A stretch of DNA of 30,624 bases from Escherichia phage 186, in the sequence record NC_001317.1; one strand, 5' to 3'. Under the pieces are notes generated by a model. The model made no database searches. It was given only the letters and a program-made list of their open reading frames with translations, and was not told where the DNA came from. Position numbers and translations under genes: made by a program. Shown piece after piece: positions 3,731-29,603 of the stretch (positions are counted from its first letter, which is position 1; every line of letters starts with the position of its first letter).

Positions 3731-3895
3731 TGATGCCTCGCCGTAATGGATTCAGGGCAAGGCTACTTAATGGCCGTCAGTGATTCGCTAAGGTGCTGTT
3801 GTGTGGGCGGTTGTCCAGTCGTCATTGGTGGTCTGGCGTGTCCTGAGTCTGGAAACTGGCGGTGACCAGTAACCCCAACCTCAGGACTCCTGACA
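3731..3895. promoter_or_regulatory. Divergent late promoter region between the terminase operon (leftward) and the scaffold/capsid operon (rightward)
   Basis: 165-bp non-coding gap between divergently oriented late operons, as in P2 (P_P/P_O). No perfect TGT-N12-ACA activator dyad could be picked out by eye. Confidence 0.4.
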
Positions 3896-6739: not shown

Positions 6740-7246
6740 ATGACGACAGTGATACTGAACCAGCCCGACGAACCGCAGGACGTACCGGGCGTGGTGATTC
6801 CCGCACCGGAGACGGGCGGTGCAGTGATTAAAAACACGTTCTTTTTCCCTGATGTGGATCCGAAGCGCGTGCGCGAACTGATGCGCCTTGAGCAGACGGT
6901 TTCCGATGCGCGCCTGCGCAATGCCATCAAGACCGGCATGGCCGAGACCAATGCGGAGCTTTACGACTACCGGCTGCGCCAGACTGCCGCCGGGTTTAAG
7001 CAACTGGCCGACGTGCCTGCCGAGGAAATCGACGGCGAGAATGTACGTGTTTTCCACTATCTGAGTGCTGTGACGGCAATGGCAACCGCCACCCTGTATG
7101 AGCGCTATCGCGGCGTTGAGGCCACCGGCAAAGGTGACAAAAAAGCCGACAGCGTGGAAACCACCATTGATGACCTGTGGCGGGATATGCGCTGGTCAGT
7201 TGCGCGTCTGCAGGACAAGCCGCGCTGCATTGTGGGGCAGCTCTGA
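6740..7246 (+). CDS. Head completion/stabilization protein (P2 gpL homolog)
   Basis: 168-aa ORF in conserved position after the small terminase; SD GAGG upstream. Confidence 0.85.
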   Translation: MTTVILNQPDEPQDVPGVVIPAPETGGAVIKNTFFFPDVDPKRVRELMRLEQTVSDARLRNAIKTGMAETNAELYDYRLRQTAAGFKQLADVPAEEIDGENVRVFHYLSAVTAMATATLYERYRGVEATGKGDKKADSVETTIDDLWRDMRWSVARLQDKPRCIVGQL

Positions 7247-7449
7247 TGAAAGTCAGGTCGATGCAGGGCGATACCCTCGACACGATTTGCGCCAGGTATT
7301 ACGGGCGCACTGAGGGCGTGGTTGAGACGGTGCTGCAGGCTAATCCGGGTCTGTCTGAGCTGGGTGTCATTCTGCCGAATGGTACAGAGATTGACCTGCC
7401 CGATGTGGCATCGTCACCCGTAACTAAAACTATCAACCTTTGGGAGTAA
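7246..7449 (+). CDS. Tail protein X (P2 gpX homolog)
   Basis: Internal ATG at 7246 overlapping the gpL stop gives a 67-aa product MKVRSMQGDTLDTICARYYGRTEGVVETVLQANPGL... matching P2 gpX in length and sequence. Confidence 0.85.
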   Translation: MKVRSMQGDTLDTICARYYGRTEGVVETVLQANPGLSELGVILPNGTEIDLPDVASSPVTKTINLWE

Positions 7450-7451
7450 CC

Positions 7452-7748
7452 ATGACAGAAGGTGAAAAAGGCGTCCTGTCACTGTTTGTGATTGGCGTGA
7501 TGATTGTTGTTGGGAAAGTGCTGGCAGGCGGTGAACCCATCACCCCGCGTCTGTTTATTGGCCGCATGCTGCTCGGTGGTTTTGTTTCAATGGTCGCCGG
7601 TGTTGTTCTGGTGCAGTTTCCTGACATGTCACTGCCCGCCGTGTGCGGGATTGGATCCATGCTCGGTATTGCCGGTTATCAGGTGGTTGAAATCGCCATA
7701 CAGCGCCGCTTTAAGTCACAAAAGGGGGAAAGTGATGCCGGTCATTAA
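7452..7748 (+). CDS. Holin (P2 gpY-like)
   Basis: Start moved to the ATG at 7452 (SD GGGAG). 98-aa protein with three hydrophobic helices and a charged C-terminus (QRRFKSQKGESD); sits immediately upstream of the endolysin. Confidence 0.8.
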   Translation: MTEGEKGVLSLFVIGVMIVVGKVLAGGEPITPRLFIGRMLLGGFVSMVAGVVLVQFPDMSLPAVCGIGSMLGIAGYQVVEIAIQRRFKSQKGESDAGH

Positions 7749-8232
7749 CACTCACCAGAATATCGCTGCGTTTCTGGACATGCTGGCGTATTCCGAAGGA
7801 ACAGCGAACCATCCGCTGACGAAAAATCGTGGCTACGACGTCATTGTCACTGGCCTTGATGGCAGACCAGAGATTTTCACCGATTACAGCGACCACCCTT
7901 TCGCGCATGGCCGACCACCGAAAGTGTTTAATCGCCGTGGCGAGAAATCCACAGCCTCGGGACGTTACCAGCAGCTTTATCTGTTCTGGCCGCACTATCA
8001 GAAACAGCTCGCATTGCCTGATTTCAGCCCACTGTCGCAGGATAAGCTCGCGATCCAGTTAATCCGGGAGCGCGGTGCTCTTGACGATATCCGGGCGGGG
8101 CGTATTGAGCGTGCTGTTTCACGTTGTCGCAATATCTGGGCGTCATTACCGGGGGCCGGTTACGGCCAGCGCGAGCACGGTCTCGAAAAGCTGGTCACCA
8201 TCTGGCGCACGGCTGGCGGGGTGGTGGCATGA
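7735..8232 (+). CDS. Endolysin (P2 gpK-like lysozyme)
   Basis: ORF-track start 7504 gives an implausible extension overlapping the holin; the ATG at 7735 (SD AAGGGGGAAAG) gives a 165-aa protein MPVINTHQNIAAFLDMLAYSEGT... closely matching P2 gpK. Confidence 0.92.
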   Translation: MPVINTHQNIAAFLDMLAYSEGTANHPLTKNRGYDVIVTGLDGRPEIFTDYSDHPFAHGRPPKVFNRRGEKSTASGRYQQLYLFWPHYQKQLALPDFSPLSQDKLAIQLIRERGALDDIRAGRIERAVSRCRNIWASLPGAGYGQREHGLEKLVTIWRTAGGVVA

Positions 8233-8642
8233 AAGTCCTGATAACGCTGCTTGTGATGGCCGTGCTCGGGTTGCTGTGGCTGCACCATGAGAACGGCAAT
8301 TTATCCCGCTCATTTGAGACGGCAAACCGCGTCGCGAGCGAGCAAAAGACGACGATTGGGATGCTGAAAAATCAGCTCAGTGTTGCCGGTCAGCTCGCCC
8401 GACGTAATGAATCCGCGCAGGTGACACTGCGCGAACAGCTCGCAAAGGCAAGTGCAGAAGCCAGCCGCCGTGAGCAGACGATAACGAGGTTACTTAATGA
8501 AAATGAAGCCTTTCGCCGCTGGTATAACGCTGCTCTGCCTGATGCTGTGCGTCGGCTGCACACCCGAACAGCCTGCGCCAGTGCCGGTGATTGTGGTCAA
8601 CGGATGCCCGAGGGTGAGCCTTTGCCCTATGCCGGGAAGTGA
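8229..8642 (+). CDS. Inner-membrane spanin (Rz-like; P2 LysB homolog)
   Basis: The ATG at 8229 overlaps the endolysin stop. N-terminal TM helix (MKVLITLLVMAVLGLLWL) followed by a coiled-coil-like region; resembles P2 LysB. Confidence 0.85.
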   Translation: MKVLITLLVMAVLGLLWLHHENGNLSRSFETANRVASEQKTTIGMLKNQLSVAGQLARRNESAQVTLREQLAKASAEASRREQTITRLLNENEAFRRWYNAALPDAVRRLHTRTACASAGDCGQRMPEGEPLPYAGK

Positions 8643-8787
8643 CCCGAAAACCAATGGTGACCTGAGCGCAGATATCCGCCGTCTTGAGGGGGCGCTGACT
8701 GCCTGCGCGCTGCAGGTCAAAACCGTCAAACACTGTCAGGATGAACTCGATGCAGAAGCACAAAAGCCTGCGCAAAGCGCTGATTAA
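8497..8787 (+). CDS. Outer-membrane lipoprotein spanin (Rz1-like; P2 LysC homolog)
   Basis: 96-aa ORF starting inside the LysB gene in the +1 frame and running past its end. Lipoprotein-type signal (LLCLMLCVGC) and a Pro/Cys-containing mature region (VNGCPRVSLCPMPGSDPKTNGDLSADIRRLE) typical of o-spanins. Confidence 0.85.
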   Translation: MKMKPFAAGITLLCLMLCVGCTPEQPAPVPVIVVNGCPRVSLCPMPGSDPKTNGDLSADIRRLEGALTACALQVKTVKHCQDELDAEAQKPAQSAD

Positions 8788-9217
8788 CGCCGTGCCGCAG
8801 CTCCGAAATAACCCCGATATGCTGCGCCTTTTTGCCGACAACGGCCACACCGATTCCCGACTGGCGAGCTCGCTGTCGTTTGAAAAGGTGTATGTGCTTA
8901 ACGTGGTGGTGACCGACTTTACTGGCGACCTCGATTTGATATTCGTGCCGGTGCAGGCATGGCTGCGTGAACATCAGCCGGACATTATGACCACCGACGA
9001 CGGGCGGGAAAAAGGATTCACCTGGATTATTGATATCAATAACGACGATTCGCTCGATATCAGTATCAGCCTGAGGCTCACCGAGCGCACGCTCGTCAAA
9101 GAGGTCGGGGGCGCGCTGCATGTCAGTTATGCACCAGAACCGCCACTGCCTGAGCTGGTGAAGCGCCCGGTTGCTATGTATGCAAACGGTGAATTAGTGA
9201 GCCAGTGGGATGAGTGA
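8741..9217 (+). CDS. Tail completion protein (P2 gpR homolog)
   Basis: 158-aa ORF (start may instead be the ATG at 8750) with SLRKALINAVPQLRNNPDMLRLFADNG and an NGELVSQWDE C-terminus matching P2 gpR. Confidence 0.85.
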   Translation: MNSMQKHKSLRKALINAVPQLRNNPDMLRLFADNGHTDSRLASSLSFEKVYVLNVVVTDFTGDLDLIFVPVQAWLREHQPDIMTTDDGREKGFTWIIDINNDDSLDISISLRLTERTLVKEVGGALHVSYAPEPPLPELVKRPVAMYANGELVSQWDE

Positions 9218-9659
9218 ATTAACCGCGCTGCAGGAGCGCCTCGCCGGTCTGATTGCCAGCCTGTCACCGGCGGCACGTCGCAAAATGGCGGCTGAGATTG
9301 CGAAAAAGCTGCGTACCAGTCAGCAGCAGCGCATCAAGCGCCAGCAGGCACCCGACGGCACCCCGTATGCCGCACGAAAGCGCCAGCCGGTACGGAGCAA
9401 GAAAGGCCGCATTAAGCGCGAAATGTTCGCCAAACTGCGCACCAGTCGCTTTATGAAAGCCAAAGGCAGCGATAGTGCGGCGGTGGTGGAGTTTACCGGC
9501 AAGGTGCAGCGCATGGCGCGGGTGCATCAGTACGGCCTCAAAGACCGCCCAAACCGCAACAGCCGGGATGTGCAGTACGAGGCGCGCCCGTTGCTCGGTT
9601 TCACCCGCGACGATGAGCAAATGATTGAAGACGTCATTATCAGCCACCTCGGCAAATAA
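9210..9659 (+). CDS. Tail completion protein (P2 gpS homolog)
   Basis: 149-aa ORF overlapping the gpR stop; conserved position and size. Confidence 0.85.
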   Translation: MSELTALQERLAGLIASLSPAARRKMAAEIAKKLRTSQQQRIKRQQAPDGTPYAARKRQPVRSKKGRIKREMFAKLRTSRFMKAKGSDSAAVVEFTGKVQRMARVHQYGLKDRPNRNSRDVQYEARPLLGFTRDDEQMIEDVIISHLGK

Positions 9660-9728
9660 ATATTGTGTGAACCACCACCGGAGGCGCGTGATTTGGCGCG
9701 GCTAAAGACCAGAGGCATTCTTTGCACT

Positions 9729-10370
9729 ATGAATACGTTATCCACGATACAGGAGCTCGCGCGTGCGATTCGTAACCTCATCCGCTCAGGTGTGGTGACG
9801 GAGGTCGATACCGTGCAGGGGCTGTGCCGCGTACAAAGCGGCGGGATCCAGACGACATGGCTGAACTGGCTGACCACCCGCGCCGGTCGTTCGCGCACAT
9901 GGTGGGCTCCCTCGCTCGGTGAGCAGGTGCTGCTGCTGGCAATCGGTGGCGAGCTTGATACCGCTTTCGTGCTGCCGGGGATTTTCTCCGACGATAACCC
10001 CGCTCCGTCTGCCTCGGCGGATGCGTGGCATGTGGTTTTTCCTGATGGCGCGGTCATTGAGTACGAGCCGGAGACCAGTGCACTGACGGTCAGAGGCATC
10101 AAAACTGCTGACGTGACCGCGTCGGAATCCATCACGGCCACTGTGCCTGTGGTGCTGGTGAAAGCAGAAACCCGCATCACCCTCGACACCCCGGAGGTGG
10201 TATGCACCAACAAACTGACGACGGCAACGCTTGAGGTGCAGAAAGGCGGGGAGATGAGAGGCGACATTGTCCACAACGGCGGCACATTTAAATCAAACGG
10301 TGTGCAGCTCGACGACCACGGTCACGGTGGTGTGCAAAGAGGCGGTGCCTGGACGGAGGACACCAAATGA
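9729..10370 (+). CDS. Baseplate central spike (P2 gpV homolog)
   Basis: Start moved to the ATG at 9729 (MNTLSTIQELARAIRNL...), matching the P2 gpV N-terminus; 213 aa. Confidence 0.9.
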   Translation: MNTLSTIQELARAIRNLIRSGVVTEVDTVQGLCRVQSGGIQTTWLNWLTTRAGRSRTWWAPSLGEQVLLLAIGGELDTAFVLPGIFSDDNPAPSASADAWHVVFPDGAVIEYEPETSALTVRGIKTADVTASESITATVPVVLVKAETRITLDTPEVVCTNKLTTATLEVQKGGEMRGDIVHNGGTFKSNGVQLDDHGHGGVQRGGAWTEDTK

Positions 10371-10714
10371 CGGCGCGCTATATGGGGATGAACCGCAACA
10401 CCGGTCTCGGTATCAGTGACACTGAACACATCAGCCAGAGCATGCGCGACATTCTGCTGACGCCGGTCGGCTCGCGGGTGATGCGTCGTGAATATGGCTC
10501 GCTCCTGTCTGCGCTGATTGATATGCCGCAAAACCCGGCGCTCAGGCTGCAAATCATGGTGGCGTGCTATTCGGCCATCCAGAAGTGGGAGCCGCGTATC
10601 AGGCTTACATCCATCAGCTTTGAGACTGGTGATGCTGGCGAGATGTATGTCGATATTACCGGGATGCGTACCGATACGGGTGCGTCAGTTTCAACCACTG
10701 TTTCACTGAGTTAA
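10367..10714 (+). CDS. Baseplate wedge protein (P2 gpW, gp25-like)
   Basis: 115-aa ORF overlapping the gpV stop; same size as P2 gpW. Confidence 0.88.
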   Translation: MTARYMGMNRNTGLGISDTEHISQSMRDILLTPVGSRVMRREYGSLLSALIDMPQNPALRLQIMVACYSAIQKWEPRIRLTSISFETGDAGEMYVDITGMRTDTGASVSTTVSLS

Positions 10715-10720
10715 ATCACT

Positions 10721-11629
10721 ATGGCAACTGTTGACCTGAGCCTGTTACCCGTTCCCGATGTGGTTGAGGAACTGGATTTTGAAACCATCCTTGCGGAACG
10801 CATTGCGACGCTAATTTCGCTATACCCCGAAGACCAGCAGGAAGCTGTAGCCCGGACGCTCGCACTTGAGTCTGAACCAATTGTTAAATTGCTGCAGGAA
10901 AACGCCTACCGTGAGGTTATCTGGCGTCAGCGTGTTAATGAAGCTGCTCGCGCAGGCATGCTGGCTTATGCCAGAGATAGCGACCTCGATAATCTCGGGG
11001 CGAATTTCAATGTTGAGCGCCTGGTCGTCAGGCCTGCTGATGACACCACCATCCCCCCGACCCCCGCTGAAATGGAGCTTGATGCCGATTTTCGTCTGCG
11101 TATACAGCAGGCATTTGAAGGGATGAGCGTTGCGGGATCCACCGGAGCTTATGAATTTCATGGCCGCAGTGCTGACGGGCGTGTCGCAGATATTTCTGTT
11201 ATCAGCCCTTCCCCAGCATGTGTCACGATATCTGTGCTTTCGCGTGAGAATAACGGTGCGGCGTCTGATGAGCTTCAGAGCATCGTGCGCAATGCGCTGA
11301 ATGCTGAGGACGTGAGGCCGGTTGCTGACCGGGTTACAGTGCAGTCAGCTCAGATTATTGACTACCAGATACGCGCAACACTTTTCGTTTATCCGGGGCC
11401 GGAAAATGAGCCGATTCGTGCGGCGGCTGAGGCGAAGCTCAAAGCTTATATCAGTGCACAGCACAGGTTGGGGCGGGATATTCGCCTGTCAGCAATTTAT
11501 GCCGCGTTGCATGTTGAGGGGGTGCAACGTGTCGAACTGGCTGCACCTGTGGCCGACATTGTGCTTGATAAAACGCAGGCATCTTTTTGCACAGACTATC
11601 AGATAGTGATTGGTGGCTCCGATGAGTGA
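10721..11629 (+). CDS. Baseplate wedge protein (P2 gpJ homolog)
   Basis: 302-aa ORF, same length as P2 gpJ, in conserved order. Confidence 0.88.
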   Translation: MATVDLSLLPVPDVVEELDFETILAERIATLISLYPEDQQEAVARTLALESEPIVKLLQENAYREVIWRQRVNEAARAGMLAYARDSDLDNLGANFNVERLVVRPADDTTIPPTPAEMELDADFRLRIQQAFEGMSVAGSTGAYEFHGRSADGRVADISVISPSPACVTISVLSRENNGAASDELQSIVRNALNAEDVRPVADRVTVQSAQIIDYQIRATLFVYPGPENEPIRAAAEAKLKAYISAQHRLGRDIRLSAIYAALHVEGVQRVELAAPVADIVLDKTQASFCTDYQIVIGGSDE

Positions 11630-12152
11630 TGTCCGCCTGTTACCTGTAGGGTCATCACCTCTTGAGGTGGCTGCTGCCAGAGCCTGCGCAGATATTGAAA
11701 ATACACCTGTTCCGTTACGCCGCCTGTGGAGTCCTGACACCTGTCCTGCAAATCTTTTGCCGTGGCTGGCGTGGGCGTTTTCCGTTGACCGCTGGGATGA
11801 GAACTGGCCGGAAAAAACAAAGCGCGATGTTATTCGCAGCGCGTATTTCACTCACTGCCACAAAGGCACGATAGGCGCTGTCAGGCGAGTTATTGAGCCG
11901 CTCGGATACATAATCAACGTTACGGAATGGTGGGAGACAGGTGACCCGGCGGGAACGTTTCGTCTTGATATCGGTGTGCTGGAAAGCGGTATTACCGAAG
12001 AAATGTATTTAGAAATGGAGCGGTTGATTGCTGATGCGAAACCTGCGAGCCGTCATTTGATTGGCCTGAATATTATCCAGGATATTCCCGGTTATATGTA
12101 TACAGGTGGTGTGAGCTGTGACGGCGACATTATTACAGTTTACCCCGGATAA
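11622..12152 (+). CDS. Baseplate protein (P2 gpI homolog)
   Basis: Start at the ATG at 11622 (MSDVRLLPVGSSPLEVAAARACADIE...) overlapping the gpJ stop; 176 aa with a strong match to P2 gpI. Confidence 0.9.
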   Translation: MSDVRLLPVGSSPLEVAAARACADIENTPVPLRRLWSPDTCPANLLPWLAWAFSVDRWDENWPEKTKRDVIRSAYFTHCHKGTIGAVRRVIEPLGYIINVTEWWETGDPAGTFRLDIGVLESGITEEMYLEMERLIADAKPASRHLIGLNIIQDIPGYMYTGGVSCDGDIITVYPG

Positions 12153-12162
12153 GTGAGGAATA

Positions 12163-13551
12163 ATGAGCACGAAATTTAAAACTATTATCACCACTGCCGG
12201 AGCCGAAAAACTGGCAGCGGCTACTGTGCCGGGTGGTAAAAAAGTGAATATCACCGTGATGGCCGTTGGTGACGGAGGCGGAAAACTGCCAGTGCCGGAC
12301 GCCGGTCAGGTGCAGCTCGTGAATGAGGTCTGGCGCCATGCCCTGAATAAAATCAGCCAGGACAACCGGAACAGCAATTACATTGTAGCCGAGCTGGTTA
12401 TTCCGCCCGAGGTGGGAGGATTCTGGATGCGCGAGTTGGGTCTTTATGATGACGAGGGCACTCTCATTGCTGTTGCCAATATGGCAGAAAGCTACAAGCC
12501 AGAACTTGCCGAGGGCTCAGGCCGTGCGCAGACATGTCGCATGGTCATTATTGTCAGCAGTATTGCCTCAGTTGAATTATCCATTGATTCGACAATGGTA
12601 ATGGCGACGCAGGAATATGTTGATGACAGGATTGCGGAACATGAGAAGTCACGTCGACATCCTGACGCCACACTGAAAGAAAAAGGCTTTACTCAACTCA
12701 GTAGCGCAACAGACAGCGCGTCTGAGGTGCTTGCGGCGACGCCGAAAGCGGTTAAAGCGGCGTATGACCTTGCTAATGCTAAATATACCGCTCAGGACGC
12801 GAGCACAGCGCAAAAAGGCATTGTGAGGCTGAGTAGTGCGGCAGACAGTACCAGTGAAGCTGAGGCCGCAACACCGAAAGCTGTCAAAATTGCGATGGAT
12901 AATGCGAATGCGAGGCTGGCAAAAGACCGGAACGGCGCTGATATTCCGAATCCGCCGTTGTTTGTCCAGAATATCGGTTTAAAACCCACGGTCGATAAAG
13001 CTGCTAATGCCGTTGATAAAAATGGCGACACGATGAACGGAAACCTGACACTCAAGGGTGATTACCGGCTGAGTTTTATTATCCAGAATGAAGACGGTTC
13101 TATTCGTGCTTATATCTTCAAGGACAAAGGTGGCGACGGTATTCGCATCAGTAATGGCGATGACGGCGGCGGTGATTTTGTTTTTGGTAAAAATGGACAG
13201 TTTTACTGCCCGGATATTATGCATGTTGGTAATACGATTGTATGGGGTGACGGAAATATCGAGGGGGCGCGATGGGGCGGTTTGTTGAGCGACTGGTTAA
13301 CTGCTCAACTGGTTGCCCGTGACAATAATATTAACTTGCGAGCACCCTATGAATGGGTTAACCAAAACTTTGTCAACCGTGCACAGCGCGGCGCACAGGC
13401 CAGCATGACTATGGACGGCGGACTTGTAGAGGCTCCATGGGGATGTTTTCTTACGGGGGGGAACGGTAACGAGGGTAATCAGGTTGGAGTGGCTTTATAC
13501 CGTCCATTGCAGATTCTTCGCAATAATACTTGGGTAACGATAGAGAACTGA
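12163..13551 (+). CDS. Tail fiber protein (P2 gpH-like N-terminus; divergent C-terminal receptor-binding region)
   Basis: 462 aa. The N-terminal ~150 aa are the conserved baseplate-attachment domain (MSTKFKTIITTAGAEKLAAATVPGGKK...). An internal tandem duplication follows (SSATDSASEVLAATPKAVKAAYDLANAKY / SSAADSTSEAEAATPKAVKIAMDNANARL), then a Gly-rich, AT-richer C-terminus. SD GAGGA upstream. Confidence 0.9.
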   Translation: MSTKFKTIITTAGAEKLAAATVPGGKKVNITVMAVGDGGGKLPVPDAGQVQLVNEVWRHALNKISQDNRNSNYIVAELVIPPEVGGFWMRELGLYDDEGTLIAVANMAESYKPELAEGSGRAQTCRMVIIVSSIASVELSIDSTMVMATQEYVDDRIAEHEKSRRHPDATLKEKGFTQLSSATDSASEVLAATPKAVKAAYDLANAKYTAQDASTAQKGIVRLSSAADSTSEAEAATPKAVKIAMDNANARLAKDRNGADIPNPPLFVQNIGLKPTVDKAANAVDKNGDTMNGNLTLKGDYRLSFIIQNEDGSIRAYIFKDKGGDGIRISNGDDGGGDFVFGKNGQFYCPDIMHVGNTIVWGDGNIEGARWGGLLSDWLTAQLVARDNNINLRAPYEWVNQNFVNRAQRGAQASMTMDGGLVEAPWGCFLTGGNGNEGNQVGVALYRPLQILRNNTWVTIEN

Positions 13552-13553
13552 AA

Positions 13554-14054
13554 ATGAAACTGATTAATTTGCAACGCTACATTCTGATGAATTATTTTTT
13601 AGGTGATGGCATTCAGTATTTTATAGATGCCACAGGTAAGGACTGGTATAAATCACTGCCCAAATTCACAAAGAAATACAGCCTTGCTATCGAAAATGAT
13701 ACGGGCGTTATTCGTAGTATCAGCGAAGATGCATCCCGGCTTTATCCCGGTGGTTTGACCGTTGTTGATGTTGACAGTATTCCGGCAGGTTGTGACATTT
13801 TCGGCGGATGGGTATTTGACGGAGAGAAAGTCATTCCTCGTGAGTACACATTGGCCGAACAGCAACGCCAGTCAGATGAAAAGAAAAAAACACTTCTTGC
13901 TGAGGCGGAGGCAACAATTTCCACGCTTGAGCGTGCGGTAAGGTTAGGCATGGCTACCGGGGAAGAAATAAGGCGACTCGAAGCATGGGAGCGTTACAGC
14001 GTATTGGTGAGCAGGGTTAAGCAGTCAGATGACTGGCCGCAAAAACCTGAATAA
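13554..14054 (+). CDS. Tail fiber assembly chaperone (P2 gpG/Tfa-like)
   Basis: ATG at 13554, 2 nt after the tail fiber stop; 166 aa; immediately downstream of the fiber gene with the typical Tfa arrangement. Confidence 0.8.
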   Translation: MKLINLQRYILMNYFLGDGIQYFIDATGKDWYKSLPKFTKKYSLAIENDTGVIRSISEDASRLYPGGLTVVDVDSIPAGCDIFGGWVFDGEKVIPREYTLAEQQRQSDEKKKTLLAEAEATISTLERAVRLGMATGEEIRRLEAWERYSVLVSRVKQSDDWPQKPE

Positions 14055-14182
14055 CCCGGCGGCATTTGCCCGCTTCTTTCTCATCCATTAGTTGTGCCAG
14101 ACATCATCCAGCCCTGACAAATAGCCCCTCACAAGACCAGCCAGGACAATAACACTCGCCCACTAACTACGGAGTTAACCGG

Positions 14183-15361
14183 ATGAGTGATTTTCACCAC
14201 GGCACGAAGGTCATCGAAATAAATGACGGTACGCGTGTTATTTCCACGGTCGCAACCGCAATCGTCGGCATGGTCTGGACAGCCAGCGATGCGGATGCCG
14301 AGACATTTCCCCTCAACGAGCCGGTACTGATTACCAATGTGCAGAGCGCCATTGCGAAAGCCGGTAAAAAAGGCACTCTGTCAGCTTCCCTGCAGGCCAT
14401 CGCCGACCAGTCAAAGCCTGTCACCGTTGTCGTGCGCGTTGCCGAAGGTACCGGAGACGATGCAGAAGCGCAGACCACGTCCAACATTATCGGCGGCACG
14501 GATGAGAACGGTAAATACACCGGTATCAAGGCGCTGCTAACTGCCGAAGCGGTCACCGGCGTTAAGCCGCGCATTCTCGGTGTGCCGGGTCTCGATACGC
14601 AGGAAGTCGCAACCGCACTTGCATCGGTCTGTATCAGCCTGCGTGCGTTTGGTTACGTCAGCGCATGGGGCTGTAAGACCATTTCCGAGGCGATGGCATA
14701 TCGCGAGAATTTCAGCCAGCGCGAGCTGATGGTCATCTGGCCTGATTTCCTCGCATGGGATACCACCGCGAACGCCACCGCCACGGCATACGCCACCGCC
14801 CGCGCACTCGGTCTGCGTGCCTACATCGACCAGACTATCGGCTGGCACAAAACGCTGTCTAACGTTGGCGTGCAGGGCGTTACCGGCATCAGCGCCTCAG
14901 TCTTTTGGGATTTGCAGGCATCCGGCACAGATGCTGACCTGCTCAACGAGGCCGGAGTCACCACGCTGGTGCGCAAGGATGGTTTCCGTTTTTGGGGGAA
15001 CCGCACATGCTCTGATGACCCGCTTTTCCTGTTTGAGAACTACACCCGAACCGCGCAGGTGCTGGCCGACACAATGGCTGAGGCGCACATGTGGGCGGTC
15101 GATAAGCCCATCACCGCATCGCTCATCCGTGACATTGTCGACGGCATTAACGCCAAATTCCGCGAGCTGAAATCAAATGGCTACATCGTGGACGGTGAAT
15201 GCTGGTTCGACGAGGAATCGAACGATAAGGAAACCCTCAAGGCCGGGAAACTGTATATCGACTACGACTATACACCGGTTCCCCCACTGGAAAGCCTGAC
15301 CCTGCGCCAGCGTATCACCGATAAATATCTGGTGAATCTGGCTGAATCGGTCAACAGCTAA
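14183..15361 (+). CDS. Tail sheath protein (P2 gpFI homolog)
   Basis: 392-aa ORF, SD ACGGAG upstream, in conserved position before the tube gene. Confidence 0.92.
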   Translation: MSDFHHGTKVIEINDGTRVISTVATAIVGMVWTASDADAETFPLNEPVLITNVQSAIAKAGKKGTLSASLQAIADQSKPVTVVVRVAEGTGDDAEAQTTSNIIGGTDENGKYTGIKALLTAEAVTGVKPRILGVPGLDTQEVATALASVCISLRAFGYVSAWGCKTISEAMAYRENFSQRELMVIWPDFLAWDTTANATATAYATARALGLRAYIDQTIGWHKTLSNVGVQGVTGISASVFWDLQASGTDADLLNEAGVTTLVRKDGFRFWGNRTCSDDPLFLFENYTRTAQVLADTMAEAHMWAVDKPITASLIRDIVDGINAKFRELKSNGYIVDGECWFDEESNDKETLKAGKLYIDYDYTPVPPLESLTLRQRITDKYLVNLAESVNS

Positions 15362-20564: not shown

Positions 20565-20608
20565 TTATGATTATCATTTATTCACGAATTGAGAATAAAG
20601 GGTGGGTT

Positions 20609-20827
20609 ATGTTTCATTGTCCGAAGTGCCATCATGCCGCACATGCGCGAACAAGCCGCTATCTAACCGAAAACACGAAAGAACGCTACCACCAGTGCCA
20701 GAACATCAACTGTAGTTGTACGTTTATGACAATGGAAACGATAGAGCGCTTTATTGTTACTCCGGGAGCCATTGACCCGGCACCGCCTCACCCGACTGTC
20801 GGTGGTCAGCGGCCATTGTGGCTCTGA
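20609..20827 (+). CDS. B: Ogr/B-family zinc-finger late-gene transcriptional activator
   Basis: ORF-track start 20567 replaced by the ATG at 20609, giving a 72-aa protein MFHCPKCHHAAHARTSRYLTENTKERYHQCQNINCSCTF... with the C-x2-C...C-x4-C zinc-binding pattern of P2 Ogr. Symbol B follows my recollection of phage 186 nomenclature. Confidence 0.9.
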   Translation: MFHCPKCHHAAHARTSRYLTENTKERYHQCQNINCSCTFMTMETIERFIVTPGAIDPAPPHPTVGGQRPLWL

Positions 20828-21156: not shown

Positions 21157-21408
21157 TTACTCAGAACCATCGCCGACATAGGTTCCATCAGGTGCGAGAT
21201 GATATCTTCCACCAACATAAGTCCCATCTGGGGCAAGTGTTGGGCGGCCAGCAACATAACTTCCATTTGGCGCTAAGCGTGGAACGCCACCGACATAAGT
21301 TCCATCGGGTGCAAGGCGTGGTGCTCCTCCTCCAACATAAGTCCCATTAGGGGCAAGCATAGGTTGTCCGTAAACATAGGTACCATCAGGTGCTAATCGA
21401 ACTGACAT
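21157..21408 (-). CDS. Small tandem-repeat protein (six roughly 13-aa LAPDGTYVGG-type repeats), function unknown
   Basis: 83-aa ORF with a strong SD (GGAGG, 4-nt spacer) 14 nt downstream of the integrase stop. Protein is MSVR followed by repeats LAPDGTYVYGQPM / LAPNGTYVGGGAPR / LAPDGTYVGGVPR / LAPNGSYVAGRPT / LAPDGTYVGGRYH / LAPDGTYVGDGSE. Confidence 0.6.
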   Translation of the reverse strand: MSVRLAPDGTYVYGQPMLAPNGTYVGGGAPRLAPDGTYVGGVPRLAPNGSYVAGRPTLAPDGTYVGGRYHLAPDGTYVGDGSE

Positions 21409-22433: not shown

Positions 22434-23011
22434 TAGTTAACCTCGCTGTATACACCCACCACACGCCCCAACGTTTTAATATCATCAATGCCGCATTCGA
22501 AAGGAACCTTCCCGCCTGCAACATGTAGTTTTCTACCCGGTAGTTTTGTTAACTCTCGAATGCTTATTGCTCCCTCAATGTCGACTAGCCATAAGCCGTC
22601 AGACAATGATGCTTGCTTGTCCACAAAATAAATTTTCCCCTCGGAACGGATAGCCATCCCATCTGTGAGCGGTTTTGTGAAAAATTGGGCATCAACACTC
22701 AATTGTTTATCGGATTTGAGGATTTCTTCACTTAATGTGAATCCCTCAATCCTTTTTGCGTCGCTCGATTCTCTGTTATTTACAAATGCTTCTCCTTCTC
22801 CGGTAAGTAACCACTGGAGATTAGCACCTGTTTCAAGGGCACAGTGAGCCGCAAAGTCATAGGAGATAGCGCCTCGGGTGTACCTGTTTGACAATGAGCT
22901 GGACGCGATATCGAAGTGGTTAGCTAATTGAATTTTCTGCGAAAATCCGTACGCCTCGCAGATGCGGTCAAGTACATCCACGTTGCTCCATCCTAAAGAA
23001 TCTATTCTCAT
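22433..23011 (-). CDS. cI: Lysogeny (immunity) repressor, 186 CI-type
   Basis: 192-aa ORF MRIDSLGWSNVDVLDRICEAYGFSQKIQLANHFDIASSSLSNRYTRGAISYDFAAHCALETGANLQWLLTGEG...: N-terminal HTH domain plus C-terminal domain. Divergent from the early operon and co-transcribed with int. Size and sequence match my recollection of phage 186 CI (P2 C is only about 99 aa). Confidence 0.88.
   Translation of the reverse strand: MRIDSLGWSNVDVLDRICEAYGFSQKIQLANHFDIASSSLSNRYTRGAISYDFAAHCALETGANLQWLLTGEGEAFVNNRESSDAKRIEGFTLSEEILKSDKQLSVDAQFFTKPLTDGMAIRSEGKIYFVDKQASLSDGLWLVDIEGAISIRELTKLPGRKLHVAGGKVPFECGIDDIKTLGRVVGVYSEVN
22725..22741. promoter_or_regulatory. Inverted repeat CTTCAC-N5-GTGAAT inside the repressor gene (putative flanking operator, left)
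   Basis: CTTCACTTAATGTGAAT, about 370 bp left of the switch region; same dyad as at the late-activator promoter and at 23404..23420. Confidence 0.45.
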
Positions 23012-23140
23012 TTCGATAAAACCTATTTACTATCTCTCAATTGGGAGATATATTTTGGCTAAACCCACGCAATTGATGGCAAGTGTTGGCAAACAGAGTC
23101 AAATCAATTGCAAACTTTGGCTAATAGGGAATCATGCAAT
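23012..23140. promoter_or_regulatory. Lysis/lysogeny switch region: divergent promoters for cI (leftward) and apl/cII (rightward) with operator-like dyads
   Basis: 129-bp intergenic region containing the palindrome ATCTC-TCAATTGG-GAGAT (23022..23039), three CAATTG hexamers (about 23029, 23067, 23096) and a direct repeat TTTGGCTAA (about 23044 and 23114). Confidence 0.6.
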
Positions 23141-23404
23141 ATGGCTTCTGAAATCGCAATCATCAAAGTGCCTGCACCTATCGTTACTCTGCAACAATTC
23201 GCAGAGCTTGAGGGTGTTTCTGAACGCACCGCCTACCGCTGGACAACCGGCGACAACCCTTGTGTACCAATCGAACCCCGCACAATCCGTAAAGGCTGCA
23301 AGAAAGCAGGTGGCCCGATTCGCATTTATTACGCACGCTGGAAAGAAGAGCAGTTGCGTAAGGCGTTGGGACATTCCCGTTTTCAACTCGTCATCGGTGC
23401 TTAA
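23141..23404 (+). CDS. apl: Apl/Cox-type excisionase and transcriptional regulator
   Basis: The ORF track starts at a TTG (23108); the ATG at 23141 (SD AGGGA) gives an 87-aa protein MASEIAIIKVPAPIVTLQQFAELEGVSERTAYRWTTG... with an Xis-like HTH. First gene of the rightward early operon. Confidence 0.85.
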   Translation: MASEIAIIKVPAPIVTLQQFAELEGVSERTAYRWTTGDNPCVPIEPRTIRKGCKKAGGPIRIYYARWKEEQLRKALGHSRFQLVIGA

Positions 23405-23420
23405 TTCACTTTATGTGAAT
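23404..23420. promoter_or_regulatory. Inverted repeat ATTCAC-N5-GTGAAT between apl and cII (putative flanking operator, right)
   Basis: ATTCACTTTATGTGAAT, about 310 bp right of the switch region. Confidence 0.45.
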
Positions 23421-23434
23421 TGTAAGGATGCAAC

Positions 23435-23944
23435 ATGTTTGATTTTCAGGTTTCCAAACATCCCCACTATGACGAAGCGTGCCGGGCTTTTGCGCAGCGT
23501 CACAACATGGCGAAGCTGGCCGAGCGTGCGGGTATGAATGTTCAAACGTTACGTAACAAGCTCAACCCAGAACAGCCTCACCAGTTCACGCCGCCTGAAT
23601 TGTGGCTGCTGACTGACCTGACCGAAGACTCAACCCTCGTTGATGGTTTTCTGGCGCAGATTCATTGTCTGCCATGCGTGCCGGTTAATGAGCTGGCTAA
23701 AGATAAATTGCAGTCTTACGTCATGCGCGCAATGAGTGAACTCGGTGAACTGGCGAGCGGTGCGGTATCTGATGAGCGTCTGACCACTGCCCGTAAGCAC
23801 AACATGATTGAAAGCGTTAACTCCGGCATTCGCATGTTGTCATTGTCGGCTCTGGCGCTGCATGCACGTCTGCAGACTAATCCCGCTATGTCGAGCGTGG
23901 TCGATACCATGAGCGGTATTGGCGCATCGTTTGGTCTGATTTGA
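23435..23944 (+). CDS. cII: CII-type transcriptional activator for establishment of lysogeny
   Basis: 169-aa ORF, SD AAGGA upstream, with an HTH (NMAKLAERAGMNVQTLRNKLN). Position after apl, and size matches my recollection of 186 CII. Confidence 0.85.
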   Translation: MFDFQVSKHPHYDEACRAFAQRHNMAKLAERAGMNVQTLRNKLNPEQPHQFTPPELWLLTDLTEDSTLVDGFLAQIHCLPCVPVNELAKDKLQSYVMRAMSELGELASGAVSDERLTTARKHNMIESVNSGIRMLSLSALALHARLQTNPAMSSVVDTMSGIGASFGLI

Positions 23945-23951
23945 GGTGCGT

Positions 23952-24179
23952 ATGCTGAAAAGTGAACCGTCATTTGCGTCTCTGCTCGTTAAGCAAAGCC
24001 CCGGTATGCATTACGGCCACGGCTGGATCGCAGGTAAGGACGGCAAGCGCTGGCACCCGTGCCGCTCACAGTCCGAATTATTAAAAGGGCTGAAAACAAA
24101 GTCGCCGAAATCGTCAGGTTTTTTAATTATTCGTATTGTCCACTTTGTAATTAAAGGAGTGAAACATGTCACGCGATGA
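23952..24179 (+). CDS. Small early protein (possibly 186 Fil-like)
   Basis: The ORF track begins at a GTG (23946); the ATG at 23952 with SD GAGGTG gives 75 aa. The Fil assignment rests only on gene order as I recall it for 186. Confidence 0.55.
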   Translation: MLKSEPSFASLLVKQSPGMHYGHGWIAGKDGKRWHPCRSQSELLKGLKTKSPKSSGFLIIRIVHFVIKGVKHVTR

Positions 24180-24366
24180 ATTAAGAATTGTTTTGGGTGC
24201 CATGATTCCAAATATGGAGGAAGGTTTTGAAATTAAAACCCGCGACGGCGCAATACTTCGCGTTGACCCTGAGTGGGAGTGCTGCAAAGAATTTAAGGAT
24301 GGATTAAAAGCCGAAATCATCAAGCAGTTAAAAAGCAAACCTGCTGTTGTATTTGGATATAGTTAA
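24166..24366 (+). CDS. Small early protein (possibly 186 Dhr-like)
   Basis: 66-aa ORF with a strong SD (AAGGAG); overlaps the previous ORF by 14 nt. Function assignment by position only. Confidence 0.55.
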   Translation: MSRDELRIVLGAMIPNMEEGFEIKTRDGAILRVDPEWECCKEFKDGLKAEIIKQLKSKPAVVFGYS

Positions 24367-24432: not shown

Positions 24433-24666
24433 ATGAGTCGAACTATTTATTTATCAACGCCGAGTGGTGCTGGCGACCACTTGCTGGAGTCTTTGTTTAA
24501 AGAAGCCAAAAAAGAAGAGCGCAAAGACCGCCGTCTCGCCGTTTCAATCCGTCTCGAAGATCTGGCCGTTCACATTACCAATTCAGATATGACAGGCAAA
24601 GAAGCGGCCGAGCTACTGCGCCGCGAAGCCACTCGCTTTGAGAACGAATCACAGGAGCTTCACTAA
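24433..24666 (+). CDS. Hypothetical early protein
   Basis: 77-aa ORF with a strong SD (AGGAGG); charged, helical-looking sequence with no recognisable motif. Confidence 0.6.
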   Translation: MSRTIYLSTPSGAGDHLLESLFKEAKKEERKDRRLAVSIRLEDLAVHITNSDMTGKEAAELLRREATRFENESQELH

Positions 24667-24893
24667 TGGCCGACGCAATGGATTTAGCACAACTGCGCGA
24701 GCAGGAAGACCGCGAACGCCACATAAGCAACGCGCGCAGCCGTCGCCATGAGGTTTCTGCATTTATCTGTGAGGAATGCGATGCACCTATCCCGGAAGCG
24801 CGCCGCCGAGCCATACCGGGCGTGCAGTGCTGCGTTACCTGTCAGGAAATCTTAGAGCTGAAAAGTAAACATTATAACGGAGGTGCTTTATGA
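24666..24893 (+). CDS. TraR/DksA-family C4 zinc-finger protein
   Basis: 75-aa ORF whose ATG overlaps the previous stop; CEEC-x17-CCVTC zinc-finger pattern (FICEECDAPIPEARRRAIPGVQCCVTCQE), typical of phage TraR-like proteins. Confidence 0.7.
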   Translation: MADAMDLAQLREQEDRERHISNARSRRHEVSAFICEECDAPIPEARRRAIPGVQCCVTCQEILELKSKHYNGGAL

Positions 24894-25474
24894 GCATTAC
24901 CAATGCAACTATTAGCCAGCGTGCAAAAAAATGGCTTGAAGATGACCGTATATTTATTGACACCGAAACTACGGGTTTGGGTGATGATGCGGAAATAGTA
25001 GAAATCTGTTTAATAGATAGCGCTGGTTTTATCATGCTAAATACATTGGTTAAACCAACTAAACCAATTCCAGCAGAGGCTACGGCCATTCATGGAATAA
25101 CTGATGAAATGGTTATGTATGCGCCAACGTGGAAAGATATTCACGGCGCAGTAGCTTCTTTATTTTTTGAGTATGGCTTTGTTATTTATAACGCCGATTA
25201 CGACACAAGACTTATATATCAAACTGCGAAATTATATGGGCTTGAGAATGACGGCTTTTGTTATTTTTTAAATGAGCGTTCGGCCTGCGCCATGATGCTA
25301 TATGCAGAGTATCGCGGCGAGCCAGGGCGATTTAAAGGTTATAAATGGCACAAATTAGTTGATGCCGCTGCACATGAAGGGGTTAGCGTTGAAGGAAAGG
25401 CACACCGTGCATTAGCAGATTGCCGGATGACTCTTGGCATTATCGACGCTTTGGCAAAAGGCGGTGCAGCATGA
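24890..25474 (+). CDS. DnaQ-like (DEDDh) 3'-5' exonuclease
   Basis: 194 aa with Exo I (FIDTETTGL), Exo II (VIYNADYD) and Exo III (HRALADC) motifs; translationally coupled; AT-rich. Confidence 0.8.
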   Translation: MSITNATISQRAKKWLEDDRIFIDTETTGLGDDAEIVEICLIDSAGFIMLNTLVKPTKPIPAEATAIHGITDEMVMYAPTWKDIHGAVASLFFEYGFVIYNADYDTRLIYQTAKLYGLENDGFCYFLNERSACAMMLYAEYRGEPGRFKGYKWHKLVDAAAHEGVSVEGKAHRALADCRMTLGIIDALAKGGAA

Positions 25475-25746
25475 GTATCCGTATCGAAATAGGTGATAAA
25501 TGGGTAATCACCAGCGACCAATATCAATTCATCCTGAATGAAAAAAAAGTCGTTAAGACCGGCAATAAAGCTGGCGAGGAATGGCTCGACACCATCGGTT
25601 ATTACCCGAAGATTAATCAGCTCATTTCTGGTCTGGTACATCACCACATTCATACGGCAATGATTATTTCCCTTAGTGCAATGGCAGAGGAAATAGAGAA
25701 GTTATCTTTTATCTGTGAAGAAGCATTTAAGGCGGTTAAAAAATGA
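25471..25746 (+). CDS. Hypothetical early protein
   Basis: The ATG at 25471 overlapping the exonuclease stop gives 91 aa (MSIRIEIGDKWVITSDQYQFILNEKK...); no recognisable motif. Confidence 0.55.
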   Translation: MSIRIEIGDKWVITSDQYQFILNEKKVVKTGNKAGEEWLDTIGYYPKINQLISGLVHHHIHTAMIISLSAMAEEIEKLSFICEEAFKAVKK

Positions 25747-26747
25747 TTGATTCCCGCTGCTTTGCTGAAAGCACAATAAATATTGTTTCTGTTTCTGGTG
25801 GAAAGGACAGCCTTGCTCAATGGATTCTTGCGGTAGAGAACGACGTACCGCGCACCACTGTTTTTGCAGATACCGGGCATGAGCATTCCCAAACAATGGA
25901 GTATCTGGATTATCTTGAATCCAGACTCGGCCCGGTTATTCGAGTGAAAGCCGATTTTACTCGGCGGATTGAAGGCAAACGGAAATTCATTGCTGAAAAA
26001 TGGCCTGTCTCTCTCGTTGAAGAATGCGGAATGTCTCATGAGCAGGCTGCAGAACGAATCGCAAAGGCACTGGAAATCCTTAAGCCAACCGGTAATCCGT
26101 TTCTCGATTTGTGCATGTGGAAAGGACGGTTCCCGAGCACGAAAGCAAGGTTTTGTTCACTGGAACTGAAACATGACTCAGTACGGGACAAGATTGTACT
26201 CCCAGCGCTGGAGAAATATGACGAAGTAATTCTATGGCAGGGTGTTCGTGCTCAGGAGTCACCAGCCCGCGCTGCGTTACCTATGTGGGAGGAGGATGCA
26301 GATAATACCCCCGGTTTGCATGTGTATCGCCCAATTCTTAACTGGACACATGAAGACGTATTTGCCTTAGCTAAACGACACGGAATTAAACCGAACCCAC
26401 TCTATCAGCAAGGTTGTAGCAGAGTTGGCTGCATGCCATGTATTCATGCAAGAAAATCTGAGCTGGCAGAGATTTTTGCTCGCTGGCCGGAGGAGATTGC
26501 GCGCGTTGCAGAGTGGGAACGTCTTGTTGCTGCCTGTTCACGTCGGGGAAACTCAACATTTTTCCCTTCGACTCACGACCCGCGGCGAGCAGAAAAACGT
26601 ATTGAAGTTGTTACCGTAGAAGAATATGGGATAGCTTCATATCGTGACTGGGCGATGACTACGCGTGGCGGTTCTCAGTACGATTTGCTCGCTGCTACAA
26701 ACGACAAAACTGTGTGCAGTAGCGTTTATGCCGGTGTATGTGAATGA
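25743..26747 (+). CDS. PAPS reductase-like / PP-loop ATP-pyrophosphatase family protein (DndC-like fold)
   Basis: 334 aa with the N-terminal PP-loop SVSGGKDS and a C-terminal Cys cluster (GCSRVGCMPC); translationally coupled upstream and with gene A downstream. Confidence 0.8.
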   Translation: MIDSRCFAESTINIVSVSGGKDSLAQWILAVENDVPRTTVFADTGHEHSQTMEYLDYLESRLGPVIRVKADFTRRIEGKRKFIAEKWPVSLVEECGMSHEQAAERIAKALEILKPTGNPFLDLCMWKGRFPSTKARFCSLELKHDSVRDKIVLPALEKYDEVILWQGVRAQESPARAALPMWEEDADNTPGLHVYRPILNWTHEDVFALAKRHGIKPNPLYQQGCSRVGCMPCIHARKSELAEIFARWPEEIARVAEWERLVAACSRRGNSTFFPSTHDPRRAEKRIEVVTVEEYGIASYRDWAMTTRGGSQYDLLAATNDKTVCSSVYAGVCE

Positions 26748-29547: not shown

Positions 29548-29578
29548 CCCCATGTTTGATAGCATGGGGTTGTTTTGT
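29548..29578 (+). terminator. Rho-independent terminator after the antirepressor gene
   Basis: CCCCATG-TTTGATAG-CATGGGG hairpin followed by TTGTTTTGT. Confidence 0.6.
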
Positions 29579-29603
29579 ATGGGATTACACACAAAGGAAA
29601 ATC

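Follow-up and report, generated by a model that had tools for sequence, protein, structure and literature searches.

Accessory gene positions left empty in the lysis and tail operon of phage 186

The late genes from the holin to the tail sheath

Sequence record NC_001317.1, which at its full length of 30,624 nucleotides is the window of this analysis, contains the whole genome of Escherichia phage 186, a temperate P2-like myovirus of the genus Eganvirus, family Peduoviridae. We analyzed the region 7735–14182, which runs from the endolysin gene up to the tail sheath gene (Table 1). An earlier note on this DNA had described two accessory loci of phage P2 as missing here, lysA between the endolysin and spanin genes and a cargo gene (Z/fun) between the fiber chaperone and sheath genes. 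The region is very probably the ordinary, densely packed lysis and tail operon of phage 186. The P2 positions of lysA, orf30 and fun(Z) hold no gene, and no homolog of P2 LysA, Orf30 or Fun(Z) was found anywhere in the window by tblastn (best E values of 4.0, 1.7 and 0.37, respectively).

The top DNA matches among deposited phages in a similarity search are Eganvirus (BIS20, PHB48, SW9, SEN1 and PSP3, at 87–92% identity), and the immunity region is of the 186 type, with exact matches to CI (RPC1_BP186) and CII (RPC2_BP186). The late gene order is collinear with that of P2: portal, terminase, scaffold, capsid, small terminase, L, X and the lysis genes, followed by R, S, V, W, J, I, H, G, FI, FII, E, T, U, D and the late activator. 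From L through FI, P2 late proteins have collinear homologs in 186 at 46–95% amino-acid identity (tblastn), with LysA, Orf30 and Fun(Z) as the exceptions. The reverse comparison shows that the remaining late region of 186 also matches P2.

Table 1 Features of the phage 186 genome considered in this analysis (aa, amino acids; ORF, open reading frame)
Feature	Position	Strand	Evidence and remarks
Extra terminase-ATPase-like ORF, 248 aa	1215–1961	-	Between portal and large terminase; Pfam Terminase_6N, E = 3e-19
Holin (P2 Y homolog)	7452–7748	+	Pfam Phage_holin_3_2, E = 6e-42; 90% aa identity to P2 Y
Endolysin (186 gene P; P2 K homolog)	7735–8232	+	ATG 7735, TGA 8230–8232; exact match AAC34155
ATGA junction	8229–8232	+	Endolysin stop and i-spanin start share 4 nt; lysA position of P2
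i-spanin (186 Orf27; P2 LysB homolog)	8229–8642	+	ATG 8229–8231; 61% aa identity to P2 LysB; exact match AAC34156, LysB family
o-spanin (P2 LysC homolog)	8497–8787	+	Pfam LysC, E = 2.4e-13; 71% aa identity to P2 LysC
Tail completion (P2 R and S homologs)	8741–9217, 9210–9659	+	69% and 53% aa identity to P2
S–V intergenic gap, 69 bp	9660–9728		P2 orf30 position, unoccupied in 186
Baseplate genes (P2 V, W, J and I homologs)	9729–12152	+	74%, 60%, 80% and 83% aa identity to P2
Tail fiber H, 462 aa	12163–13551	+	Pfam Phage_tail_fib, Phage_fiber_2, gp37_trimer; exact match AAC34164
Tail fiber assembly (P2 G homolog)	13554–14054	+	Pfam Caudo_TAP, E = 6e-22; 46% aa identity to P2 G; exact match AAC34165
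Hairpin	14058–14074	+	Terminator scan: 5 pairs, then TCTTTCTCAT tail; T-rich tail to ~14085
TGT-N12-CCA	14093–14110	+	Aligns with P2 L003:11656–11684, annotated 'activator binding site; pF'; P2 also has TGT-N12-CCA
-10-like GACAAT	14145–14150	+	Aligns with P2 GAAAAT
Predicted late transcription start	~14157–14159	+	Homology to annotated P2 pF start, L003:11727–11729
Ribosome-binding site GGAG of sheath gene	14171–14174	+	Read from the sequence
Tail sheath gene (P2 FI homolog)	14183–15361	+	ATG 14183; 86% aa identity to P2 FI over 395 aa
ORF without P2 homolog	21157–21408		Adjoins integrase gene
ORF without P2 homolog, switch region	22962–23537		Presumably Apl, by position on the 186 map
Fil	23946–24179		Pfam Phage_186_Fil; no P2 homolog
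Two small ORFs	24166–24366, 24575–24814		No P2 homolog
RNase T/DnaQ-type exonuclease-like ORF	24890–25474		Early operon; GC 0.42; no P2 counterpart
PAPS-reductase-domain ORF	25743–26747		Early operon; GC 0.49; no P2 counterpart

The lysis genes of 186 overlap one another. The 3' end of the holin gene overlaps the endolysin start by 14 nt. At 94.5% amino-acid identity to P2 K over 165 aa, the endolysin belongs to the P2 K family; its cluster also contains proteins named GH104/GH24 and, as judged from the sequence alone, it appears to resemble lambda R. Neither the endolysin nor LysB matched a Pfam family at E ≤ 0.01. The N-terminal stretch of the i-spanin, MKVLITLLVMAVLGLLWL, reads as hydrophobic, and the o-spanin gene, which has a lipobox-like LCVGC motif, starts within lysB in another frame and ends within the R-homolog gene. 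These features suggest that LysB and LysC form an overlapped two-component spanin, Rz/Rz1-like, as in P2. By analogy with P2, lysis would most likely proceed via four genes, encoding the Y-type holin, endolysin P and the overlapped spanin of Orf27/LysB and the LysC homolog.

A recent exchange of the Y–K module between P2 and 186 was considered, given the 90–95% amino-acid identity of these proteins compared with 53–70% for the flanking genes. It was rejected because the DNA identity of the module (~75–90% per 60-nt block) is not clearly above that of the left flank. We therefore attribute the high amino-acid identity of Y and K to constraint at the protein level.

The lysA position in phage 186 and its relatives

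As the earlier note had stated, the endolysin stop overlaps the i-spanin start directly and no LysA-type gene lies between them; both points are borne out by the shared ATGA and the lack of a tblastn homolog. The consecutive accessions of P and Orf27 also suggest that there is no annotated gene in between. P2, by comparison, has a lysA gene of 426 bp between K and lysB, which encodes a putative antiholin with four transmembrane domains. When the lysis genes of 186, PSP3 and P2 are aligned at the DNA level, the difference is a single clean block of 443 bp present in P2 only. It includes the stop codon of K, a spacer of 14 nt that carries a ribosome-binding site, the lysA gene, and the initial lysB codons, which overlap the lysA end. 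In 186 and PSP3 the last endolysin codon runs directly into ATGA, and the alignment with P2 and PSP3 revealed no remnant or scar of a lysA deletion in 186. PSP3 and BIS20 both have the 4-nt endolysin/LysB overlap of 186 and no lysA. Functional co-variation of the LysB N-terminus with lysA was also considered and rejected: only the first ~10 residues differ, these are the codons that overlap the lysA 3' end, and the hydrophobic core is unchanged.

We surveyed the position in two sets of relatives. The first consists of 61 prophage loci (L numbers below) from one-genome-per-species bacterial assemblies (GTDB), retrieved with a J protein query and with 10-kb flanks covering both junctions. The second consists of IMG/VR contigs, the best 80 of at least 598 J matches, taken with flanks of the same length. 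All elements were thus found via the baseplate J protein, and the counts are not phylogenetically independent. Cassette classes were assigned from the X-to-R interval for 52 elements of the first set (GTDB prophages plus the window, PSP3 and P2) and for 69 IMG/VR contigs.

A small holin with a signal-arrest-release (SAR)-type endolysin and no lysA is found in 30 elements of the first set and 27 IMG/VR contigs; the same pair is accompanied by a lysA-like gene in 9 and 15. The Y and K genes occur without lysA in 7 and 22, and with it in 4 and 5. Two first-set elements, from Pseudomonas, and no IMG/VR contig have another cassette. lysA is therefore absent from 88 of 121 cassettes (39/52 in the first set and 49/69 in IMG/VR). 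In the lysA-less cassettes of the first set the endolysin stop always lies -10 to +5 nt from the LysB start. Of the 23 IMG/VR contigs with an R protein ≥88% identical to that of 186, 22 have Y and K without lysA.

lysA-like genes are present in close relatives nonetheless. The prophages L017, L021, L024 and L031 encode LysB, R and FI proteins 89–98% identical to those of 186, yet have the small holin, the SAR-type endolysin and a lysA-like gene. Among phage isolates, P2 LysA has homologs in 79 records, 75 of them at ≥90% identity; those listed are P2-type (P2, Wphi, L-413C etc.). Only four records hold distant homologs, EtG and ENT4 among them. The Erwinia phage EtG (Eganvirus EtG), the sole Eganvirus isolate among the LysA matches listed, shares its genus with 186 according to the record taxonomy, has collinear late genes, and covers 64% of 186 positions 7000–15000 at 86% identity. 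Its lysA slot is filled by gp11, a lysA-like gene (40% identical to P2 LysA) between the endolysin and an Rz-like spanin, and the endolysin upstream of gp11 differs from the 186 type.

These genes could be taken to mean that 186 descends from a phage with a gene of the lysA type, and perhaps with cargo in front of the sheath gene as well, both since deleted or recombined away to leave compact junctions. Such a secondary loss is consistent with lysA-like genes being old and widespread, with their association with two unrelated holin/endolysin pairs at 34–42% identity to P2 LysA, with their presence in L017, L024 and L031 (LysB, R and FI 92–98% identical to 186), and with EtG, in which both slots are filled. 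We nevertheless consider it unlikely, on the basis that no lysA remnant is present, that P2 and 186 differ by one clean block, and that the two genes at the 186 junction overlap in a functional ATGA. The same junction occurs in PSP3, BIS20, 613R3, 22 IMG/VR contigs and further GTDB prophages; the latter are reported as six, and those named are L004, L005, L015, L023 and L025 (4-nt overlap; L023 was also measured at -16).

Several observations concern the lysA-like genes themselves. Those that are 34–42% identical to P2 LysA lie 3' of a gene for a small holin of 73 aa and one for an endolysin with a SAR-like N-terminus, in L017 (6374–7519), L007, L016, L021, L024, L026, L031, L041 and L056. L022 has a SAR-type endolysin as in L017-like prophages, but no lysA. 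In this prophage of Erwinia tracheiphila ICMP 5845 the SAR-type endolysin is divided over two frames (7011–7519) and there is no upstream holin ORF of ≥60 aa; its lysis cassette may be decaying.

The lysA module assorts independently of the holin/endolysin type. LysA has been termed an antiholin (PMC3091744). Given that lysA always lies between the endolysin gene and lysB, and does so with two unrelated holin/endolysin pairs, a holin-specific antiholin would need matched co-evolution with two holins. Both pairs are also common without lysA, as the class counts given above show (30/9/7/4 in the first set and 27/15/22/5 in IMG/VR). It is conceivable, although doubtful, that LysA is a free-standing optional module acting on a shared target, for example membrane energisation or the spanin. 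If the target of LysA is indeed shared, 186 is a natural lysA-null of the Y–K system in which this could be tested.

The P2 record annotates lysA as 'nonessential; affects timing of lysis', an effect on timing only that fits with the gene being dispensable. Lysis in 186 would then occur without a separate LysA-type antiholin, its timing being set by the holin and by late transcription. An antiholin or lysis-timing function could instead be encoded elsewhere in 186, for example by a holin with two starts or by a small membrane protein without homology to LysA, but we regard such a functional replacement as very improbable. Nothing positive points to it; the candidates are small alternative-frame ORFs over the endolysin gene (7829–8062 and 8075–8290) and several early ORFs without an assigned function. 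The two alternative-frame ORFs have no obvious transmembrane-like stretch, the window holds no LysA homolog, and the holin reads as having one Met start only, with no lambda-type Met-Lys-Met dual start. The nonessential nature of P2 lysA itself also argues against a need for replacement. For work on lysis timing, 186 offers a natural lysA-less comparator.

The S–V and G–FI intervals and accessory content elsewhere

The gap between the fiber chaperone and sheath genes, estimated earlier at about 128 bp, is exactly 128 bp (14055–14182). The claim that the P2 Z/fun cargo position is unoccupied also stands. No ORF of ≥40 aa was found in 14055–14182 on either strand, the longest being 28 aa, and no Rfam match was found there; the lone sub-threshold match, a chance match to Rota_CRE (E = 0.81), falls inside the tail-fiber gene.

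The interval nevertheless has content. Across 22 elements, P2 included, the 150 bp that precede the sheath gene align well. Columns conserved at ≥85% comprise the right-hand arm of a hairpin rich in GC, TGTG, CCA, AAT.GC, GA.AAT, and a leader and ribosome-binding site block ending in ACGGAGTTAA.CGGATG. The annotated activator-binding site and transcription start of P2 pF fall on conserved columns. Activator-dependent late promoters of the P2 type have a TGT-N12-ACA partial dyad ~55 nt upstream of the start and no good -35 element. The segment 14093–14159 of 186 appears to fit the P2 pF-class pattern at the homologous position, with TGT-N12-CCA centered ~56 nt upstream of the predicted start and then a -10 element. 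On the + strand of the genome TGT-N12-[A/C]CA has only 10 matches, the second of note being at 3800–3817 in the divergent head promoter region. A homolog of the late activator Ogr (Ogr/B-type zinc-finger protein), on which transcription from such a promoter would depend, is encoded at 20567–20827 and is 62% identical to P2 Ogr.

The segment 14058–14085 aligns with the conserved GGCGGGC...GCCCGCC hairpin of the relatives, and its left arm in 186 has a 1-nt deletion. Owing to this deletion, the local fold of the 186 hairpin is only -6.8 kcal/mol; over 65-nt segments (ViennaRNA) the value is -9.2, compared with about -10.6 to -26.5 in relatives. The hairpin is likely a terminator of the V-to-G operon that has become degenerate in 186, and 186 may show more read-through from the tail-fiber operon into that of the sheath gene. 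In order, then, a hairpin would end the V-to-G operon, an activator-dependent late promoter would follow, and the sheath-gene leader with its ribosome-binding site would complete the interval. As judged by alignment, the 128 bp appear to be a conserved unit of terminator and late promoter rather than a site that has lost its cargo, marking the place between the G stop and the hairpin where the Z cargo of P2 is inserted.

A gap of this size could in principle hide an unannotated small gene or regulatory RNA. A 28-aa ORF with a TTG start (14066–14152) and several ORFs of 20–23 aa overlap it, and the ~390-bp gaps of some relatives hold an ORF of 56 aa that includes a hydrophobic, transmembrane-like stretch (L027). 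We find this scarcely credible, because the conserved columns correspond to hairpin, activator site, -10 element, leader and ribosome-binding site and not to a reading frame, there is no Rfam match, and terminator and promoter already account for the length of 128 bp.

The compact state is the common one. The G–FI gap is 135 bp in PSP3 and 130 bp in BIS20. In the first set 32/54 elements, and in IMG/VR 39/63 (~60% in both), contain nothing but H and G with a gap of ≤170 bp, and compact gaps are typically 120–170 bp. Among contigs whose FI is at least 90% identical to that of 186 the interval is compact in 19 of 22. Some calls of an extra ORF (L004, L022, L056, L070 and L074) are artefacts of a fragmented H gene, and the gap is still ~130 bp. 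In P2, ~2.2 kb of DNA with fun(Z) among it separates the G stop from the conserved hairpin–promoter block, which still lies directly 5' of FI. In EtG the slot is filled by two minus-strand genes, gp23 (DUF1493) and gp24, between the tail-fiber assembly and sheath genes.

The cargo found at the G–FI position is diverse. It includes fun(Z) in P2, proteins of no known function in E. albertii and E. ruysiae prophages of the P2 type, DNA invertases, an acyltransferase of the O-antigen type, and Tad2-like, GDSL-lipase-like and tail-fiber-like genes. In Xenorhabdus (L064 14486–15286) the slot holds a protein with Tad2-like anti-defense and DUF7823 domains, and in Kosakonia (L045 5798–6967, minus strand) an Acyl_transf_3 acyltransferase. 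Hin/Gin-type DNA invertases occupy it in L059 (13851–14432) and L061 (14015–14734), where they probably switch tail fibers. Gaps of ~350–390 bp form a recurrent class. In L027 such a gap holds an ORF of 56 aa on the minus strand (13964–14134) that includes a hydrophobic, transmembrane-like segment; the class is also found in L010, L034, L043, L062, L063 and several IMG/VR contigs. The ORF may represent a cargo gene of very small size in the Z slot.

The G–FI interval also bears on the secondary loss discussed above. The 1-nt deletion in the 186 hairpin might be counted in favor of it. Against it, the block aligns base for base with that of relatives and leaves no surplus sequence, and the Z-slot cargo differs by lineage (fun(Z), invertase, acyltransferase, Tad2-like, DUF1493). 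Repeated insertion accounts for such differences better than descent of one ancestral gene.

A third position behaves in the same manner. The S–V interval is 940 bp with orf30 in P2 and 69 bp in 186; that of PSP3 is 65 bp by tblastn extrapolation and 68 bp from annotated coordinates. It is 65 bp in nearly all 186-type contigs measured. This is the slot most often filled in relatives, for example by YjcF in phage 613R3, and it carries 0.8–4 kb in 46 of 73 IMG/VR contigs and about half of the measurable first set. Non-P2 genes are described as very common at the TO-region, the Z-region and the orf30 position of other P2-like phages (PMC3091744). Passages of a second study (Rousset et al. 2022; PMC9122126) discuss a hotspot of P2-like phages in connection with old and tin; as these passages do not mention the Z/fun position, the hotspot is not directly relevant to the G–FI slot.

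The tail-fiber genes next to the G–FI interval have a composition of their own. Residues 1–251 of H are 82% identical to P2 H and the remainder, the divergent C-terminus, is weakly related. The assembly gene has a GC content of 0.45 and a TAA stop at 14052–14054. Across 12900–14054, the C-terminal half of H plus the assembly gene, GC is 0.45–0.50 compared with 0.54–0.60 in the surrounding late genes. Clusters at 90% identity have only three members for H and seven for the assembly protein, one member being in a Citrobacter youngae assembly that also encodes proteins identical to 186 CI, P and Orf27. The segment looks like a rare, horizontally swapped host-range cassette.

The accessory content of 186 had been placed in the early operon and at the right end. 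This is largely upheld, as every ORF of the window that lacks any P2 homolog lies at 21.1–30.3 kb, a region of lower GC. In addition to those in Table 1, they comprise CI, CII, a DinI-domain protein (Tum-like) and a 266-aa ORF. The claim needs amending in two respects: several of these non-P2 genes are core regulators (CI, CII, Tum-like), and an extra terminase-like ORF lies among the late genes at 1215–1961. That ORF holds the terminase ATPase domain only and matches the middle part of P2 gpP at 37.5% identity; PSP3 has a counterpart, PSP3p02, and P2 does not. The right end of P2 has old and tin, both lacking in 186. A perfect 20-bp palindrome, TTGTATGGGATTACACACAA, lies at 29575–29594 inside the 266-aa right-end ORF.

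Three variable slots in 186, P2 and other Eganvirus phages

We conclude that lysA, S–V (orf30) and G–FI are three independently variable slots, all empty in 186. Empty slots are the commonest state across the family and nearly universal in the clade of 186, PSP3 and BIS20. The absences that the earlier note described as missing P2 accessory loci are thus real, but to call them missing is to take P2 as the reference; the empty state is that of the family majority. The opposite statement, that phages of this subgroup never carry genes at these positions, is not literally true either: EtG fills the lysA and G–FI slots, and L017, L021, L024 and L031 carry a lysA-like gene. Neither an overlap of two genes nor a short space between genes is a statistical anomaly, and there is accordingly no model of chance to test them against.

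Several points weigh against this conclusion. The data fit either direction of the lysA change, gain or loss, and a loss in the 186 lineage may have occurred. EtG, with its lysA and G–FI slots filled, belongs to the same genus as 186, a lysA-like gene is present in 4 of the 10 GTDB prophages that have 186-type R, S and FI, and P2 carries lysA with the same Y–K pair as 186. With regard to the G–FI unit, the weakness of the 186 hairpin (-6.8 kcal/mol) makes termination there uncertain, and the promoter, start site and terminator activity are predicted by alignment to the P2 annotation.

The map of the three slots is useful when P2-like prophages are mined for cargo or defense genes. The compact layout itself is the already documented architecture of 186 and its clade and can be seen in the annotations deposited for 186-type phages. 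186, BIS20, PsP3, SEN1 and SW9 have been assigned to Eganvirus, and BIS20 and 186 are reported to have 90–92% homology across the first 11 kb, lysis genes included (PMC8986868). The same study describes the tail-fiber gene as a recombination hotspot, finds zero nucleotide similarity between BIS20 CI and Apl and their 186 counterparts, and gives the integrases of SW9, PsP3 and SEN1 as only ~53% identical to those of 186 and BIS20 (PMC8986868). In our comparison the Salmonella phages PSP3 and BIS20 have the gene order of 186 and ~88–89% DNA identity to it over 7000–15000, with the exception of the tail fiber, whose C-termini, like the assembly proteins, differ from those of 186. At the lysA, orf30 and Z positions it is P2 that is the atypical member.

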